The notes under the pieces are model-generated. The model searched no databases and was not told the origin of the DNA. It worked only from the letters and a program-made list of their open reading frames with translations. 64,000 nt of DNA from Planktothricoides raciborskii GIHE-MW2 (GTDB lineage Bacteria > Cyanobacteriota > Cyanobacteriia > Cyanobacteriales > Laspinemataceae). Shown in pieces: positions 1 to 19,350 of the stretch. The DNA is taken from contig NZ_CP159837.1 in the NCBI RefSeq assembly GCF_040564635.1, positions 227,801-291,800 on the forward strand, in the 5' to 3' direction. The first letter of the stretch is position 1. Every line of letters starts with the position of its first letter. The position numbers and the translations under genes are program-made.

Positions 1-3000
1 ACCGTAATTACTTGACCAATTAACCGGACAATATATTGTTCATCATCTAAGCGGTTAGGGTCATTTTCAATGCCACTCCTTTTATCAACGGTTACTTGAT
101 AGCGGTCAATAATCCAATCTAAAGCGGAACGGTTGCCCAGACGATATTCAAAGACTTTCGGGGGAATACCCGCTAAAGTGAGAAACTCGTTATAAATTAA
201 CTGGGTTTTATCTTTACTCAGCTTCATCTTTTCCACCCGCCAATTTAAGGGAACCTCATTATTTTCGATAAATTTTAGGGGATATTCCGGTTGTTGTTCA
301 TAGTTGAGATGAATTTCCCCCAGGCGTTTTCCCGCATTGGCGAAACTATCAAAGTCTGGGGCGTAGGGAATGCGAGGTAATTCCCGTTTTAGGTTATCGG
401 CGTATTTTTCCCGATAGGTGGGATGGTGTAAAAGGGCATATATATAATAGAAGATATCCCATTTACTGATAGCGGGGTTTTGGTATTCTTGACGAAAAGC
501 ATCTAAAGCCCAATCAGTGATATTTTCTTGGCGGTTGGTTCCGTCTTCATCGTAGGTATAGAAGGGGAAACATTGGGTTTTTTCTAAAATATCTAAGCAA
601 GGTATTATTGGAGTCATCAGACAATGAAAAGGCTTACTACTACCGATACCACTTAAGCAAATAACTCGATTCTCTTTCTCAGTCTCCGGGGTAGGGAATA
701 TGTAGGGAAATTTACCGCGTACATCATTTAAGTAAGCAGCAAAGTATAGAAAAGAAGAGGTAAAAGGACGATAGAGAGATTTTCTGATATAATCTGGGTC
801 ATATTCTGCGATAATCCCTTGCTTTAAATATTTTTTTAAGTCGCGAGACCAGCTAATTTTAGTATCATCATAGGTGACAAAATTATCAACTCCAATAGAT
901 TTATCTTTGCAATCCTGCCATTTTCTCACTTGTTCATTATAAGTTGCGATCGCCCGTTGAATATTGGCAGCCAATTCATCGGCATTAAAATTATAAGCCC
1001 AAACATCGCGATTAGTTGCAACTCCTAAACTAAATATCTTAAAAATAGTATCGGTTGCTTCTCCCTTTGCTGCTTTGGTTTCCTTAGTTCCCATTGGGAT
1101 AAAAGTTTCAAAATCAGCCTGCAACCCTGCGGTTAACCAGGTATTTTTTTTGTCTGGTTTAATTTCTTGCCAGTCAACCCCAGCTAAATGCTGAGATTTT
1201 TCTAAATAGGTATATTTTTCCTCTTTGCGCCAAAACTCACCCACGGCTGCATAGTAAATTTGACATTGAGATTTTTGACCTTCTTTCTTTTTAATCAACA
1301 GGTTAATACTCACCCCTACTTGAATCCCAAAAACATTATGAGTCGTTCCTGATAACTTGGGATTAGTTCGCACATTACCCCCCAAATCTAAAACATAAAT
1401 CGCGTCAAAATCTTGGGCTAAATGTTGCCGCATCCCATCAAAAGCAATATTATCAATAAAACTGTTATTGCTGACAAATGCCACAATTCCCTCATCTTTA
1501 ATTCTATCCGATGCCCAGCGAAATGCTTTCACATAAGGATCGGAAAGCTTATTTTTTAAAGTCGCTTTCGAGTCCTTAGCATAAGTCTCCGCTACCCGTC
1601 GATCAACCCCTCCCTTTTGGTCATATTTCCGGTTTTTATTATTATCATTCTCATTTTCCTGCCCTACATTATAAGGAGGATTGCCAATAACCACAAAAAT
1701 CGGCGAATTTTGCTGCCGTTTCACCCGTTGGGTATTTTCGGGAGTAAACAAATCCAATTGCAACGACTCTTGATCCGAGAAAGTATCCACCAAACAAATC
1801 CCTTCAAACGGCTGATATTGCCCCGTTGCCGTCAAATATTCATGCTCAATATTCATCGAAGCAATATAATAAGGTAACAACATCACCTCATTGCAGTGCA
1901 ACTCATGCTCATATTTATAAGATAAAGCAGTTTTTCTAATTTCCCGCATCACCCGCATCAGAAAATTACCCGTGCCCACAAACGGATCCAGAATATGCAC
2001 CACTTTGTCGCTGAGAGATTTATTAAACTCTTTTCGCAGAATCTCATCAACACTTTTCACCATAAAATCTACAATCGGCTGCGGAGTATAAACAATCCCG
2101 TGAGTATCCGCTACCTTAACCGCAAACCCTTGGAAAAACTTCTCATAAACCGTGTTTAAAAAATGCTGTTTCTCGCTATACTCGTTAATTGTCGCGGCGG
2201 CTTCTTCTAATGCCCGATAAAAATAATCTACCTCCGCTAAAAAATGGGCGCGGCTAAAAGACTTAGAGGTTAAAGCCGAAATCACCTTCTCAATTTCCAC
2301 CGCGATAATATTGCGGTTAGTAAAATCAGGGTTATTAAAAATCTGGCGAAAAATCCGTTCCGTGAGTAAATGCTGAATCAGCATCTCTTCTACTGCCGCA
2401 TCAGAAATATTAGGATTAATCGACTGACGGCAAAGATTACTAAACCCATCAAAAGCATCAATAAATTTTTTATTGGTTTTCCGTTGCCCCTCAATTAACT
2501 CAACCAGTTTTTCCCCTAAGCTGCGAACTCTGTCCCCAAATTCTGCGGCGGCTTTTTCCCAATTTTCGATCTGGGGTGGGCGATATTCAAAAAATAGCTT
2601 AAGACTTTCTACCAGGACTTCCGGTTTAGTGATATCCCCATCATAAACTTGCTGTCCCCCTTGCCAAATAATCACCCGTTCAGGAGACTGAAAAATAATG
2701 TTATCTTTGGGATAGCCTTTGGCAAATTTCTTTTGCACTTCCTTGGCTAAATCATCTTCCGTATCTTTGGCTTCCCAGACCCCATGTTTGAGGGTATCTT
2801 GCCGAACTAATAACCCATCAACTTGGATGCGCTTTTTCTCGGTTAATTTTAGGCTATTTTCCTGTAGCAATATCCAGTTAAATTGCTGACAACAAGCGGT
2901 GAGCAAATCAGCAAAAGCTACTTTTACTGCCCCTTCATTAGCTGCCCCCAACTTAGCAAAGTTTTGTAATGTTTCGTAATATAACTTTACTGGTTTGTGG

Positions 3001-3029
3001 GTAGGTTTGAGGTTGAGAATAGCCATAAG
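1..3029 (-). CDS. Type IIG/IIL-like restriction-modification enzyme, N6-adenine DNA methyltransferase core (5' part of gene; C-terminus runs off window start)
   Basis: The minus-strand ORF starts at the ATG at 3029 and stays open to position 1; the ORF track omits it because it has no stop in the window. Translation carries motif I (DPFVGTGNFL), then the catalytic NPPY (VIGNPPYNVG), which fits a gamma-class N6-adenine methyltransferase. About 330 aa lie N-terminal to the methyltransferase core and contain a D...(E-A-K) pattern (QVDGLL...VWEAKD) consistent with a PD-ExK nuclease. At least 570 aa follow, typical of a target-recognition domain. Confidence 0.8.
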
Positions 3030-3366
3030 CTTAATCCGATTTTTGTATAGGCGAAATTAGCTATATGTTACCACAGAGGTGGGGCGGAGGGGCAGAGGTG
3101 CAGAGGTGCCCGCCATCGGTGTGGGGTGCCCGCCATCGGCAGAGGTGCGGAAGGGCAGAGTCAACAATCAACAATCAACCACCAACAAACAACCACGAAC
3201 AATATATATATGTCGGCACGTTTTCCCACTTTAACATTTTCTCTATGATATAATATACTTTCGGAGTTGTCAATAGTTTTTGAGAAAAAAGTTGGCGGAA
3301 TTTTTACCACAGAGACACGGAGAAACACAGAGGACTCTGTGGTAGCAATTTAGGCGTTATTTGACC

Positions 3367-6300
3367 TTATAATTGGGTCTTAGAATTCGGCCAAGGAATT
3401 AAAGGATCTTGGGATAAGCGGTCAGAAACCCTTTGAGCACCGAGGGCATTTAAGTGACTGGGGTCGGAAAAATATTGATGCTCGTTCGGCCATTCTTGAC
3501 TAAAATCTCGGAAGATAAATCCATGTTGCAATGCCAGCCCTAACATATACTTTTGAAAGGCGCTTTCATGTTTCATGCGAATCGGATCTAAATAATCTTC
3601 GGTTAGGGGAGTGTTAACAAAAACCAGTGAGACTTGATGCTTGTTGAGAAAGTCAAGTAAGTTAATGGTTGCTGTAGTTTGTTGACCCGTAAGGCTAAAG
3701 GATTCATAGTCAGCGTCATAGTCCCCAGAAACGAAAGCATATTGCTCATAATAACTCTTCGGGTCGAACTGAATGCTGATGGGCAGGAAACCATTAAAGT
3801 GACTGATAGATTTACCGTCGGTAATTGTGATTGCATCTAAAGGATTTACGGTGCCGTCTGAGGCCGAGTCGCAAACCAAAGATGTGTCCCCAGTTTTATC
3901 GGTACTTTGGCAAGAAAGAGACTTGGTTGAATCAGCGGATTTCTGTCGATCGCTAATAGAATTGCGGAGACTATAGGCAAACCAATTGTGCAATTCTTGG
4001 CGTTGAGAATAGGTAGCAGAAAGCGAGCCGACTTGTTCATTAAGCCATCGGTCAAGTTGCTGGTAGGCATCAGAGAAAGAGATGCCTTTTTTGGCTCGTT
4101 CGGCGAGGGTGGAGGTTAAGGAAGCCAAAGAATTTCCTGATTTAGATTCTGGGGGCAAAATTGCCGGGGGTGAACCGAATTGTAATTCTTTGTAGCCTGC
4201 GGAGGCGGTAATCATTTGAAAAGTGCGATCGCTTCTACCACTATTAAAAGCGCGTGCCCCATCGGCCCAAATAATTAAACGAGGCAACTGTTTAGCCCCA
4301 AGGAGTTGACGCACGAGCAAATCCACTACTTGAGCCGTTGCACCATTCACCCCAAAATTAAAAATGCGGAGATTAGGATAGCGATCGCTAAGTTGACGAT
4401 GCATATGCCCTGGATCGACACCCCGTAGAGCGCGGGAACTGCCCACAATCAGCACATCGGGCACCCCATACTCAGCCACATACTGAGCATAAATCGCCAA
4501 TTGGTCGTCCAGTTGCTGACTATTAAACGAAGGATATTTAAACTTTTCCGCGAGTCGGGGGCTAAAAAATTCAGCATCTCCGGTCATAGCTTGAGTAAAA
4601 CCAGAAGCGTTAAACACTTCAGAGTTGTCCTCGGCCTTTGACCAATTCATATTGCCTAAATCGGAGTCACTGGCTCCGGTAAAATCCATCAACTCTTGAT
4701 TGTCGATTTGGGTTGAAGCGGGCAGCAGGGCTGAAGATTCAGAGACTGCAGTGGTTGCTTGCCACTGCGCTTGATTAGTTTTGAACTGCTGGATTTGTAG
4801 CAGTTCCGCCAATAACCAATCCGCTTGCAGGGTAAACAATAAACCCAAAAGTCCCCAAATCATGGTTACTTTTGCCGAAGTTAAGTTGGTAGTGGGGGAA
4901 GTGGTAATGGGAACAAAAAGCCCAGAGAGGAGTAACCCTTGCTGGAGAGGATTGGGAGATGCTTCTTTCTTTTTCCGAAGTTTGACGGTGAGTGGCTTAG
5001 TCAGACAAGATTGTAAATCGTCTGAGTTGAGATCGGGATGCATCACCAAATTGCCCGGTTGGGGCAACAAGTCGGCAGTCGTCACCAAAGATGCGGGTTC
5101 GGTAACGGTAAATTCTGGGATGGTTTCCGTGCGAGACGAGCGGGACTGAAAATCCAGGCCATAGCGCCATTGCCCCTGGGCTTTTTGAAGCTGTTTTTGT
5201 CCCGCTCGCCTGCCGTAGACGCGCACTCCCAGGGTTTGCGGCAGATTCAGAGTAGCGACAAACTTGGCAACTTTCGCTCCGATCGCTCGCGGGGGGCAGG
5301 TGGGGGCTTCCACCAGAATATGCAGCAGGTCTGCTTTTTGACGGAGGGAAACCCGTATTCCCCCGGTATTGAGTTTTTCTTCCAAATCCGGGTGGAGTAG
5401 GCGATCGATCAAAAAAGTCAGGGCGGACAAATCTCCATTCTGGGCTAACTCCATCGTCGTGGGGGCAAGATGGCTAAACCGAGAAGCGGGCAAATCGATC
5501 CAATCTACCCACAGGGGGGTAGCATCCATATCCAGGGAACTGGTAGATTTATCACCTCTGAGACCATAGATAGTGACGCCATAGATATTCTGGGGGGCAA
5601 TAGTTTCTAGGAGGGGAGCGATCGCTGCCTTAACTGCTTCCTTGTGAAAAGTCGTCGAATCCGTCCCATAAGCCGCTGAATCGATGGCAAAACCTGGGTC
5701 GCTCAAAAAGATATGTAGGGTCGATTCTTTCAGCACCCCAGAAATCTGTAAATCTTCAGCAAAACTACCCGGTAAAGCTTCCCGTAACCGTTGATGCAAC
5801 AGTTGGGTAATTGCTTCCACATCTCCCCACCTGGCCCAATCTTTGAGCATCAGTTTTGCGGGGGTCAAATCGACCCGGAGAATCCATTCCGGCTGTTTTT
5901 CTCCGCTCACCTGACCGAGAATCACCGCATCTTTAAAGCCCTGTAAATCCAATTCTCGTAAGCGGGCGCCGAGGGAAGGGGCAATAGACAAGGGTTCTGG
6001 ACTATAAGCAGACTGGCAAACCACCCAAAGACGCTTTTGGGGTTGAGAGTTGACCGCCTCCACCTTAGTATGCAGATAAACAGCCGACCAAGGATTAGGG
6101 GCAGCCGATGCAGGATTTGGCTCGGCTGCCTCTGTCCCTGCCGAGGGTGATGGGGAAGCGAGTGATGATTCCAGGGTTTGAACTTTCACAATCACCTTAA
6201 CCCCTAAACCCCAAGACTTCAGGGCGTGACTCAGGTAATCGGCGATCGCCTTGGGATTTCCTTCGCGGGCAGCGTGCCAATCCTCGGACGGAGGGGGCAA

Positions 6301-15141: not shown

Positions 15142-15200
15142 AAGCCACATTATTTTCTATTTTCAGTCAAAATAATGTGGCTTTGTCCGATATTTTTATA
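15142..15200 (+). terminator. Rho-independent terminator-like hairpin after the membrane protein gene
   Basis: A perfect 15-bp inverted repeat (AAGCCACATTATTTT ... AAAATAATGTGGCTT) is followed by a T-rich tract. Confidence 0.5.
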
Positions 15201-15463
15201 TTTTTTTACTTTAAATTAACAAAAATTACTTTAAATTAACAAAAATTTAGGTGAAATGCGAACAAATAAATCAAAATAAATTAAAATAAATCAACATAAA
15301 TTGGCGATCGCCCTATCCCCTAACCTGCCTAGCCAAATGTTATCAAAATTTGAAATTAGGCAGGGGTTTCCTGTGAAACCATAGCAAACAGCGAAATTTA
15401 GACAAAGGCTAATCTTTTTGATAAAATTTGATAAAATTTGAATTAACTATAATCAAAATTTGA

Positions 15464-17919
15464 GTGCGATTCGTTCACGCGGAAAGTGGATGGTAATTAA
15501 TACCTGAAACTTGCGCTTTGTAATGGTTTCGGAAGACAGAGTACACACAGGCATCAGCCTAAATCGTAGTCACGAACCCATTAGCGCGACCTGAACTGGT
15601 CGTTTGGTAAGTAGGGTCGGCCCTACTAGGGGAGTCACACCCCCTACCCTCGCGGAAAATACCATAAAAGGTATGGTCACGCCCTAGTAGGTAACGAAAC
15701 AGGCGGAATGCAGACCCCGAACGTAGCCGAAGCCAGCAGCCTAAGCCGGTTAGGAGCAAGAGGGACTCTCTCAATGGTGAATGAAAATGAATTGCCATTC
15801 AAACTGCGTCATCGTGAAACGAGCCAAATAAGGCTGACAGGCTCGAACCAAAAGGTAAAGTGGGTGGCCTTGGTGCTCAATGGTCATCAAGGCGTGTGGC
15901 CAAACTCTCACCGCAGAAGAGGCAGCACCTAACGAGAGGACGGACAATCAAACGACACAACAGGGTAAGCCCTACAGAGTCTATGGGAAGGTCGAATCCC
16001 ATAGTAAGCAGACCGCAAGGAAGGCAGAACTCTCTGGAGGGTAGAGGATGAGGCAAAAAGCGAAAGCATCCCTGTAATGGGGAGATAGGGGTTCAAAATT
16101 TGCCCCTGACCGAAAGGAACAGCAGACTTGCCTTGGGTCTTATGAGAAAGAGACCAGACAGTAAAAACCATATCTGAGGACAAGTTAGATGTCGCAGCTA
16201 AAAGCAACAAACGGACCAAAGAAGCCACTGGAAGATTGGAGCCAAATTAACTGGCAAAAAGTCAACAAGCTGGTTAGGAACTTACGTCAAAGAATCTTTC
16301 TCGCGAGAAAACTTGGTAACTTTCGCAAACTAAGAAGTTTGCAAAAGTTGATGTTAAGAAGCCACGCCAACTTACTATTGTCAGTGAGGAAAATCACCCA
16401 AACCAATAAAGGAAAAGCAACGGCAGGAATTGACAAGGAAATAGTCAATACCCCAGAACAAAGGGTGAAGCTGGTAAACAACTGGAATGGCGGAACTCAA
16501 AGCCCAACCAAACGGGTAATGATACCAAAGCCAAACGGAAAGATACGACCGCTAGGAATCCCAACCGTGCGTGACAGAATCGAACAGGCAATAGTAATGA
16601 ATGCATTAGAACCCGAATGGGAACCCGTGTTTGAGCCAAACTCCTACGGATTCAGACCCGGAAGAAGCTGTCAAGATGCCATTGGACTTTTATGCGACTT
16701 CAAAAAGGCAGAGACACTTGGGTTCTAGAAGCTGACATCAAAGGATTTTTCGATAATATTGCCCATGAATCCATCTTGAAACAATTAGGAAACCTACCTA
16801 AACGGGATTTAATCCAAAGATGGTTAAAAGCTGGCTATGTTCTCAAAGGGGATATCAACCCCACAAAGACGGGAACACCGCAAGGTGGGGTAATCTCACC
16901 CCTACTGGCCAACATTGGACTGCATGGTTTGGAACAATTCATTAAAACCACCAATTCAAAATTAGGCATCGTGCGGTATGCAGACGACTTTATAGTCACT
17001 GCTAAAGACAAAGGAAGTCTTGAAAAAGCCCAGACCAGAATCCAGCAATGGTTATCAGAAAGAGGACTTGAATTAAGCACGGAGAAAACGGTTATTACAT
17101 CAATAGAAAAGGGCTTTGACTTTCTCGGTTTCAACCACCGCCACTATAACGGCAAACTGCTTATCAAGCCATCCAAAAAGAAGGTTTTAGCCTTCTGTAA
17201 AAGGATAGGCGAAGAAATAAAGGCAATGAATGGTTGTGAACAGGAAGTAGTCATTAAAAAGCTAAATCCGATTCTCCGAGGTTTTGCTAACTACTACAAA
17301 GGGGTAGTGAGCAAAGTAACCTTCAGCTACATCTCATCAAGAGTGTGGTACTACCTTTGGAGTTGGGCGAAGCGTCGGCATCCCAACAAAAACACAAAAT
17401 GGATTCGGAAACGTTACTTTAAGACCATAAAAGGCAATAAGTGGACGTTCGCCTGTACAGGTACAGACAAACGGCGAGGGAAAGAGGTTGAAATAATTCT
17501 CTACCCAATAACTTACACTCCAATCGAGCGCCATGTAAAGGTCAAAGGGGAAGCGTCACCGGACGATCCGAGCCTCAAGGAATACTGGAAAAAACGTCAC
17601 CAGAAATATGGTAAGAGCTACTGGGAGAAAAATTCCCGGAATTATAAAATCGCCCAAAACCAAAACTGGAAATGCCCTATCTGTGGCGAACCTTTATTCA
17701 ACGGTGAGGAAATTGAAACCCATCATATAACACCTGTTGCAGAAGGCGGACAAAACGACATTGAAAACCTTGTGCATCTACACCAAGCGTGTCATAAGCA
17801 GGTACACAGCAAATCCAAGTCCAATCGCTTGAAATAAGGCTTGAGCCGGATGATACGAAAGTGTCAAGTCCGGTTCTTAGGGGAGGGGAGGGGAGTAATC
17901 CCTGAACCTTACCCGACTA
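15464..17919 (+). mobile_element. Group II intron (about 2.45 kb) encoding an RT-maturase-HNH protein
   Basis: The 5' end is GTGCG at 15464. Domain V is a textbook match (GAGCCGGATGATACGAAAGTGTCAAGTCCGGTTC, 17841-17874). A GUAA-tetraloop domain VI candidate follows. The intron-encoded protein ORF lies in domain IV. Confidence 0.8.
16189..17837 (+). pseudogene. Group II intron-encoded reverse transcriptase/maturase with C-terminal HNH endonuclease, split by a frameshift
   Basis: ORF 16189..16728 (frame 1; RT motifs 0-2: GIPTVRDRIEQ, YGFRPGRSCQDA) and ORF 16692..17837 (frame 3; WVLEADIKGFFD, YADDFIV, X/maturase, HNH CPICG...HH) overlap by 37 nt. The break falls in an A5 run at 16700-16704. Confidence 0.8.
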
Positions 17920-18896
17920 TAGCAGTCGCCAGTCCAGTTAGGACGTAGAATAAAAGAAGTTGCCAAAATTCGAGATAAATCTACCCATGTCTAATTCTTA
18001 CAGCTACAACTTACGGAAAAAGGTCATAGAGGCCATTGAAATCAACGGGATGAAGAAGAGTGAAGCCAGTGAACTCTTTGGAATTAGCCGCTTTTGCGAT
18101 CAATCTGTGGCTCAAGCGTAAAGAAGAAACTGGAGACTTCCATGCTAAGACATACAGACCCCCGGGTCATAGTCATAGCATAACGGACTGGGATAAGTTT
18201 CGAGCTTTTGTTGAAGAGAATGCGCTCATTAACCCAAGCTCATCTGGCTGAATTATGGGACGGTGAAATTAGTGAAAGAACCATCAGTAGGGGACTCAAA
18301 AAAATCGGCTTCACTCGCAAAAAAAAAACTTATGGATACCGGGAACGGGATGAAATAAAACGGGCAGAATTTATGGAAAAACTCGCTTCAGTCAAGCCTG
18401 AAGACATTGTATATGGCGATGAAGCTGGTATGGATAGCCGCGATGACTACAGCTATGGTGACAGTAGAAAAGGCGAACGTCTCCATGCTCTGAAGTCAGG
18501 ACGACGCCTGGGGCGCCTTAATATGATTGCCGCTTTTTGTCAAGGGGAATTACGCGCTCCTTTCACCCTTGAAGGAGCCTGCAATCGGAACGTATTTGAA
18601 CTCTGGTTAGAAATCTGTCTCATTCCCACCTTGAAACCGGGGCAAAAATTGGTGATTGACAACGCCACGTTTCATAGGGGAAGACGTATTGAACAACTGG
18701 TGCAAGAGGCCGGATGCGAAATTTGGTATTTACCGCCCTATTCCCCAGACTTAAATAAAATTGAGCGGTGTTGGTCTTGGCTTAAAAGCCGTATTCGACA
18801 CCAACTTAAACAGTTTAACACCAGATTACGAGAGGCTATGGAGCAGGTTCTTCGGTTAGCCGGTGCTTAATTTCCTAACTGGAGTGGCGACTGCTA
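17920..18896. mobile_element. IS630/Tc1-mariner family insertion sequence with 24-bp terminal inverted repeats and TA target duplication
   Basis: The terminal inverted repeats are TAGCAGTCGCCAGTCCAGTTAGGA (left) and TAGCAGTCGCCACTCCAGTTAGGA (right, reverse complement). TA flanks both ends (17918-17919 and 18897-18898). Confidence 0.8.
17987..18870 (+). pseudogene. IS630-family DDE transposase split across three reading frames
   Basis: The HTH N-terminus (MSNSYSYNLRKKVIEAIE..FGISR) runs 17987-18121 in frame 2. A middle segment runs 18060-18251 in frame 3, and the DDE core runs 18208-18870 in frame 1 (VYGDEAG, VIDNATFH, LPPYSPDLNKIE). Two +1 shifts are needed to join them. Confidence 0.7.
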
Positions 18897-18935
18897 TACC
18901 CGAAGCGAACTGCTATACAAGCCACGGGTAAACCA

Positions 18936-19233
18936 AAGATTCGGGTTGGCATTGGGATGCACACAGGAGTTTTGATGGCTGGCAGTGTCGGCGGCAAAAA
19001 AGGTCAAATTTTTCCGTGATTGGGGATACGGTTAATGTTGCCGCCAGACTAGAACCCATGAATAATTTACCAAAAATAATCCGTATCATTTACTGATGAC
19101 TGCGGATACTTATAATTTAGTTTGCGATCGCTATTTGGGTGAGCAAGTTGATCGCATTCAACTCCGAGGCAAAGAAGAAACTACCACGATTTATGCTATT
19201 TTAGGAGAGCGATCGCCGGAAAAACCGGGTTAA
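18936..19233 (+). pseudogene. C-terminal fragment of a class III adenylate/guanylate cyclase, frameshifted
   Basis: Cyclase catalytic-domain blocks are readable only by switching frames: KIRVGIGMHTGVLMAGSVGGKKGQIF, then VIGDTVNVAARLEPM, then LMTADTYNLVCDRYLGEQVDRIQLRGKEETTTIYAILGER. There is no N-terminal part upstream. Confidence 0.6.
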
Positions 19234-19350
19234 TTTTCCGGATTAATTTTCCGGGTTAATTTTCCGGGTTAATTTTTAGGGTTAATTTTTAGGGTTAATT
19301 TTTAGGGTTAATTTTTAGGGTTAATTTTCCAGATTACCAGATTAATTTTC
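19226..19350. repeat. Tandem array of about 8 copies of a 15-bp unit (GGGTTAATTTT[CT][CA]G)
   Basis: Seen directly in the sequence. Confidence 0.9.

Follow-up and report, generated by a model that had tools for sequence, protein, structure and literature searches.

A 64,000-nucleotide stretch of the Planktothricoides raciborskii GIHE-MW2 genome (contig NZ_CP159837.1, positions 227,801 to 291,800; hereafter the window, with coordinates counted from its first base) carries an insertion sequence (IS) of the IS630 family next to a group II intron. The locus raises the question of how the two elements lie to each other and what each of them can still do. A preliminary description, made from the letters and their open reading frames (ORFs), had placed the IS in the 3′ end of the intron, one mobile element nested in another, had the 3′ splice region probably destroyed, and took the transposase to be decaying unless its two frameshifts were sequencing errors. 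We consider it highly probable that the locus is instead a defective ISY100-like IS630 element that abuts an RNA-complete group II intron and could move only with a helper in trans. It is of a known kind, an ordinary pile-up of decaying mobile DNA.

The IS630 element abuts the intact 3′ end of the intron

Three features define the junction.

15584..17917, plus strand: neighbouring group II intron, 2,334 nt, complete at both ends (homologs with unrelated flanks)
17843..17917, plus strand: intron domain V (17843-17876), domain VI (about 17880-17914, branch A at 17911), then the final GAC (Rfam RF00029; fold of −39.1 kcal/mol)
17918..17919, no strand: left flanking TA, exon positions +1/+2 just past the intron 3′ splice site (sequence; intron end at 17917; TA flanks typical of the family)

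The only Rfam match in the window is to RF00029 (Intron_gpII), which covers positions 17841 to 17917 and model positions 1 to 77 of 77 (58.3 bits, gathering score 40). Folding of domain VI, proposed as a check in the preliminary description, gives a stem capped by a GUAA loop; the branch-site A at 17911, 7 nt short of the intron end, is unpaired. Domain V, domain VI with its branch-site A, and the terminal AY (...GAC) are those of a group II intron. For comparison, homologous introns were taken from loci encoding close relatives of the intron protein, and nine such loci were aligned to the window with BLAST. All nine alignments stop at 17917/17918. Six of the homologs (L013, L014, L016, L017, L018, and L021) end in ...CTTACCCGAC, 41 nt past domain V, and the DNA downstream of their ends consists of six unrelated sequences. 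Intron sequence is present only to the left of the IS; the DNA to its right (18899 onward) has no similarity to any of the nine homolog loci.

The last intron base is 17917, and domain VI and the 3′ splice site are intact and lie entirely upstream of 17918, which the preliminary description had itself named as the arrangement incompatible with its reading. The IS abuts the intron at the TA of exon positions +1 and +2 and is not nested in it. Its distance from domain V, given earlier as about 45 nt, holds up (the IS starts 43 nt past 17876), while its placement inside domain VI does not, as the intron ends at 17917. An IS lying within or at domain VI, with the 3′ splice region destroyed, had in its favor this short distance and the difficulty of placing domain VI and the splice site by eye; it is hardly credible against an Rfam domain V/VI model matched end to end, six homologs that end at exactly base 17917, and a right flank that matches no intron homolog and is cyclase coding sequence from 18918. 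In IIB and IIC introns, a single exon base is used for 3′ exon pairing, between intron-binding site 3 (IBS3) and exon-binding site 3 (EBS3) (PMC4424553). The first two exon bases here are still TA, and therefore the IBS3 base is unchanged. The locus should not be cited as an example of nested elements or of an IS-inactivated intron.

That the IS sits on the first two exon bases through a preference of its IS630 lineage for intron-exon junction DNA is a speculation to which we attach very little weight, as is the alternative paired with it, a working +1 site at CGC-UUU-UGC in the transposase gene (see below). Elsewhere, in L016 and L018, a homologous intron and a different IS630-type element lie near each other, 178 bp apart and not adjacent. 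In L016 (positions 2518-3675; likewise in L018) this is a larger element with a 355-aa transposase and ends TACCAAATCCGGTTAT, downstream of the intron in another organism. We judge the proximity to be a coincidence.

The element has intact ends and a transposase spread over three frames

The IS proper and its gene comprise the following features.

17920..17943, plus strand: left terminal inverted repeat, TAGCAGTCGCCAGTCCAGTTAGGA (repeat finder; 24-mer count)
18873..18896, minus strand: right terminal inverted repeat, one mismatch against the left repeat (repeat finder; 24-mer count)
18897..18898, no strand: right flanking TA (sequence)
17987..18121, plus strand: transposase fragment 1, residues 1-35 (first helix-turn-helix), then an out-of-frame tail and a stop (ORF reading; identical 44-aa product on 13 contigs elsewhere)
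18099..18224, plus strand: transposase fragment 2, residues about 37-79, up to the second helix-turn-helix (tblastn with P0001, query residues 38-79 at 93% identity)
18208..18870, plus strand: transposase fragment 3, the remaining DNA-binding region and an intact DDE_3 catalytic domain (ORFs, Pfam, alignment)

Sequence reading and the repeat finder agree on an element of 977 bp (17920-18896). The repeat finder reports one inverted-repeat pair (17918-17943 and 18873-18898), which is 26 nt long with the outer TA and 96% complementary; without the TA, the repeats are 24 nt with 23 of 24 positions complementary, as first described. The 24-nt repeat occurs twice in the 64-kb window, at the two IS ends (0 occurrences expected by chance), and the identical 24-mer stands at the ends of IS copies in 8 other cyanobacterial genomes. 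A TA is found at both ends in nearly all of about 40 IS relatives with readable ends. It flanks both sides of the present element too, and so much of the earlier claim of a TA target duplication stands; the duplication itself does not follow, because TA...TA is also expected after recombination between copies, and no empty site was found.

The frame-corrected transposase matches Pfam DDE_3 (E = 2.4e−36), HTH_Tnp_IS630 (E = 6.4e−9), and HTH_33. The helix-turn-helix (HTH) matches were obtained after correction of the two frameshifts; as encoded, the HTH region is broken at about residues 35 and 79. The three catalytic residues (D144, D224, and E259 in frame-corrected numbering; codons at 18418-20, 18658-60, and 18763-65) fall in invariant alignment columns, with 35 residues from the second D to the E, and the DDE core is indeed intact. 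Among 711 homologs of the frame-corrected protein, the full-length ones are 290 to 291 aa long and are named IS630 family transposases. With its DDE_3 triad, HTH motifs, and terminal inverted repeats, the element belongs to the IS630 family.

The closest full-length homolog is a cyanobacterial IS630 transposase at most 82% identical, and no full-length transposase above this value was present in a collection of 5.8 billion proteins. A scan of species-representative genomes for the exact end repeat recovered relatives of 82 to 83% identity and elements resembling miniature inverted-repeat transposable elements (MITE-like elements), and nothing closer; an exact-protein look-up of P0121 returned no match.

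ORF reading and alignment place the transposase in three frames, each change being a +1 step; the ORF carrying residues of about 37 to 79 spans 18060-18251. Exact look-up of the 44-aa product of fragment 1 yielded 13 contigs, with ten loci shown. Seven of these ten (L105-L111) come from independent ENA, JGI, and Logan assemblies and cover the present intron-IS locus, and L102-L104 represent a sister IS copy at another location. Look-up of a small downstream ORF added two further NCBI isolate genomes. Sister IS copies thus found at other loci have different flanks.

The intron is complete as RNA, with a split protein gene

The coding part of the intron has two features.

16189-17837, plus strand: intron reverse transcriptase/maturase/HNH gene (Pfam RVT_N, RVT_1, GIIM, and HNH)
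16684..16696, plus strand: loss of 4 nt after 16687, leaving the intron-encoded protein in two ORFs of 179 aa and 381 aa (alignment with L013, L017, and L021)

The encoded protein is an intron reverse transcriptase/maturase, and its gene is split. Its closest relative is 93% identical and comes from Planktothricoides raciborskii; an exact-protein look-up of the 381-aa reverse transcriptase ORF gave no match. The same 4-nt deletion is present in L105 and L109, and L105 and L109-L111 show ORFs split in the same way. A frameshift in the A5 run near 16700 was rejected as its cause, since the alignment shows the deletion after 16687. The intron is complete as RNA but is predicted to lack a working reverse transcriptase/maturase of its own.

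At the 5′ end, the intron homologs align from 15584, and the DNA that precedes GCGCGACC... in three of them (L013, L017, and L019) is unrelated. The window copy and most homologs begin with GCGCG, L105 with GUGCG, and two assemblies with CCGCG (GUGYG expected). A start at the GTGCG of 15464 was rejected because all homologs begin at 15584. In L126 and L128, the equivalent of window positions 15575-15590, the junction of 5′ exon and intron, reads AACCATTTCCGCGACC, compared with AACCCATTAGCGCGACC in the window, and the first intron base differs.

Candidates for exon-binding site 1 (EBS1) at 16076 and 16093 were rejected because both loops are invariant whatever the exon. The loop at 15878-15883 (CAATGG) covaries with the 5′ exon in L013, L019, and L017, with perfect pairing or one wobble; in the window, 5 of its 6 bases pair with the 5′ exon. 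We take this loop to be the probable EBS1; given its pairing at 5 of 6 positions, the intron would sit at a near-cognate target. That 5′ exon, 15464-15583 (120 nt), begins with GTGCGA and contains a CCUAA/UAAUGG pair resembling a tetraloop receptor. Another group II intron may have left it as its 5′ piece, which would make it a twintron-like target; no Rfam match and no plasmid match to it were found.

L014 (positions 2339-2368) has an intron 5′ end (GCGCGACC...) immediately behind an intron 3′ end (...CCCGAC). The junction could represent tandem copies, an intron circle or lariat junction in the reads, or an artifact of repeat collapse.

Possible recombination between IS copies and a proposed order of events

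To the right of the IS lies one further gene.

18918..19233, plus strand: frameshifted remnant of a class III adenylate/guanylate cyclase gene, 3′ half (Pfam Guanylate_cyc at E = 4e−11, profile positions 93-178 of 183; homolog alignment)

The cyclase remnant contains at least two frameshifts, and its 5′ half is absent from the neighbourhood. Alignment with cyclase homologs did not settle whether 18899-18917 is cyclase-derived. Within this interval, 7 nt to the right of the IS, the 13 bases GCGAACTGCTATA (18905-18917) resemble the IS right end GGCGACTGCTATA, with which they share a 9-mer and GCGA separated by a 1-nt gap. A solitary leftover IS end, a likeness to the target site, or chance could account for them; looked for as the end of an older IS, they recur neither in the window nor in 101 loci, and the 21-mer was absent from a metagenome scan.

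Sister IS copies are identical over the first approximately 590 nt and diverge after about 18510. Three left flanks were seen: A, the intron; B, the inside of an IS5-type gene; and C, another non-coding flank. There are two right flanks: X, CCCGAAGCG... followed by the 3′ half of the frameshifted cyclase gene, and Y, a different flank. Among assemblies they occur in the combinations A-X, B-X, B-Y, and C-Y, and in L110 it is the other IS type that follows the intron. The idea that left flank B together with right flank Y restores an IS5-type transposase ORF was tested and was not convincing. The differing flanks suggest recombination between IS copies, and hence that these copies drive rearrangements in Planktothricoides-type genomes.

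We propose that the intron would first have homed into a fragment of another intron, that the IS would then have landed on the TA adjacent to it, and that recombination between IS copies would finally have joined the IS to the cyclase gene remnant. This order is only modestly favored. How far the last step reaches is the main alternative: the whole intron-IS-cyclase arrangement may be the product of homologous recombination between two IS copies, in which case the right flank was never the 3′ exon of the intron. The four flank combinations and the hybrid in L110, the switch from identity to divergence at about 18510, and a cyclase gene without its 5′ half all speak for it. Chimeras can also come from short-read assemblies, and A-X is the arrangement seen in isolate genomes, including L112. 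We give this account an even chance; it is compatible with the proposed history and included in it.

Doubtful, though deserving more attention than the nested reading dismissed above, is the reverse order, in which the IS already lay in the fragment of another intron and the group II intron then reverse-spliced to the left of its TA. The position of the intron is set mainly by the 5′ exon, with which EBS1 pairs in the window, and in this intron family the 3′ exon can vary widely, with A, T, G, or C at +1; in L014, moreover, an intron 3′ end is followed directly by an intron 5′ end. Set against this order is the HNH endonuclease domain of the intron-encoded protein. For second-strand cleavage, group II HNH intron proteins normally recognize the 3′ exon, and an IS end would not provide it. 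Look-ups also found no intron-less IS with this left flank.

Several points weigh against our account of a defective IS630 element abutting an RNA-complete intron. Some of the flank combinations come from short-read metagenome assemblies, which are prone to mis-joins across a 1-kb repeat. No empty site was recovered, either of the intron without the IS or of the IS without the intron at this left flank, and the order of insertion is inferred. The likeness of GCGAACTGCTATA to the IS right end is not covered by the account. The source genome was seen over 64 kb, and an intact sister copy may lie elsewhere in it. Finally, the run of ten A residues in the transposase gene, considered below, may be a homopolymer miscall or a strain variant.

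Both frameshifts are genuine lesions

The two frame changes were placed by aligning the IS with three full-length relatives of 82 to 83% identity.

18089..18098, plus strand: frameshift 1 (FS1, +1), patch CGCTTTTGCG in place of the relatives' in-frame CG-TAATACG (alignment with relatives)
18222..18230, plus strand: frameshift 2 (FS2, +1), GCGCTCATT in place of the relatives' GC-KGAATT; no homopolymer (alignment with relatives)

Neither lies in the A-runs around 18100 and 18200 to which the preliminary description had assigned them: both are outside any homopolymer of 5 or more bases, and the only long A-runs in the IS, A7 at 18298 and A10 at 18319, cause no frame change in the window. All ten other assemblies with coverage of the FS2 site, L112 and L120 among them, have the same FS2, and L102-L103 and L105-L111 share the FS1 sequence of the window. 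An in-frame FS1 allele, CGTAATACGATCG, is found at the same locus in L112 (NCBI GCA_001276715.1) and L120, in surrounding DNA that is 99.3 to 99.6% identical. The FS1 patch is present in a distant copy, L011, whose IS is 82% identical overall; among 84 family members screened, the window copy and L011 were the only ones with this allele. Given that the same locus has an in-frame allele in another strain, FS1, a multi-base allelic patch, is most simply explained by gene conversion between IS copies.

Because identical sequence recurs at both sites in six to eight independent ENA, JGI, Logan, and NCBI assemblies, both frameshifts are genuine mutations, and the suspicion of decay voiced at the outset gains support. 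The proviso of sequencing errors does not apply to the two shifts; a different A-run, at 18319-18328, does vary in length among assemblies (A10, A9, and A8). That variation is what could be said for errors in an otherwise intact transposase, a reading made most implausible by the absence of either shift from a homopolymer of 5 or more bases, by the recurrence of FS2 in all ten other assemblies, and by an FS1 that is the same in eight assemblies and is a multi-base patch, with no single indel.

Equally far-fetched, in our assessment, is that FS1 is no lesion but a functional +1 recoding site (CGC UUU UGC) at which tRNA-Phe slips on UUU_U; if it worked, the transposase gene would have two different recoding events. 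The run of four U residues would permit perfect re-pairing in the +1 frame, and the allele is old enough to be common to L011. Its restriction to two of the 84 members screened argues otherwise, and no carrier is otherwise intact: L011 has three more shifts, and all Planktothricoides-type copies have FS2. The in-frame allele at the same locus in another strain is, in addition, what gene conversion predicts.

The end repeats of ISY100 are bound by HTH motifs (residues 19-40 and 71-92; PMC2170065), and FS1 and FS2 lie at the corresponding positions. Since both frameshifts hit the HTH region, the window copy is predicted to be decaying and non-autonomous.

An A-run at the HTH-DDE junction is a probable recoding site

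A third site in the gene resembles a lesion.

18319..18328, plus strand: run of ten A residues (A10) at the junction of the HTH and DDE parts, the conserved recoding site of the family (comparison with 70 relatives)

We surveyed this junction in 80 metagenome relatives and three genome copies, of which 70 were scorable. The HTH and DDE halves of the relatives usually differ in frame and meet at CGN-A8-G or A9; a −1 step is needed in 50 of 70, the frames are fused in 15, and a +1 step is needed in 5. One 875-nt RefSeq coding sequence of this type, whose length is not a multiple of 3, has a protein accession. IS630 is listed among the families that use frameshift events in a review that cites transcriptional realignment in a Roseiflexus IS630 (PMC5009743). 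The prevalence of the −1 junction (50 of 70 relatives) points to the A-run as a conserved −1 recoding site of this IS family.

In the window, A10 fuses the HTH and DDE frames, so that no slip is needed there, and leaves FS1 and FS2 unrepaired. The same locus has A9 in L105, L106, L108, L109, L111, L112, and L120, and A8 in L107. The relatives resemble IS630 elements with frameshifting or realignment, such as that of Roseiflexus, in having a run of 8 to 9 A residues at the ORF junction and a downstream ORF in the −1 frame. The window copy differs from them in its in-frame A10, and the likeness, which is one of sequence, fits ribosomal and transcriptional slippage alike. For annotation of this cyanobacterial IS630 clade, the A-run at the junction would be a recoding site and not damage, with the true lesions elsewhere, as here.

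Comparison with known mobile elements

By its sequence, the element would be a cut-and-paste IS of the IS630/Tc1/mariner kind, built like ISY100 (ISTcSa) of Synechocystis PCC 6803, with 24-bp end repeats, a TA target, and a single transposase gene that combines an N-terminal paired HTH region with a DDE domain. The likeness to ISY100 is by description, without alignment to the ISY100 sequence; the nearest plasmid-borne Synechocystis relative of the window IS is about 47% identical. ISY100 has a single uninterrupted ORF, whereas the present family normally has two frames joined at the A-run, and the window copy has two extra frameshifts.

For ISY100, ends of 24 to 30 bp suffice in cis (PMC2170065). 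A copy with intact end repeats, such as the one in the window, could move only with a related transposase acting in trans. It is in this respect like the MITE-like IS630 derivatives, which have intact ends, no working transposase, and presumably helper-dependent movement; unlike them, it is full length and keeps an ORF for an intact catalytic domain. Two such short elements are found in Laspinema genomes, L010 (270-668, about 400 bp) and L009 (95-404, about 310 bp), which share the 24-bp ends and keep approximately the first 160 to 255 nt of the IS. Both are without transposase and are MITE-like derivatives of this IS family, and they too would have to move in trans.

Like group II introns known among other mobile DNA and in twintrons, the window intron carries a damaged reverse transcriptase gene and is bordered by an IS on the 3′ side, and its 5′ exon starts with GTGCGA, as another intron would. 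It is unlike a twintron in that the IS lies outside the intron, an adjacency, and in that the putative outer intron is a fragment of about 120 nt with no database match.

Surroundings of the locus

In further strains or samples, an IS5-like element (DUF4096 gene) has the same end after window position 15411 in L124 and L125 and after 19052 in L105 (3554 onward). Recombination between two such IS5-like copies would lead to loss of the whole intron-IS block. Short AT-rich tandem repeats, (GGGTTAATTTTY)n and two copies of TTTAAATTAACAAAAATTAC, flank the mobile block (window positions 19205-19330 and 15190-15300). As a hot spot of mobile elements, the region is in line with what is generally known of bacterial group II introns (PMC4424553). 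HIP1 palindromes (GCGATCGC) are frequent, as in cyanobacteria.

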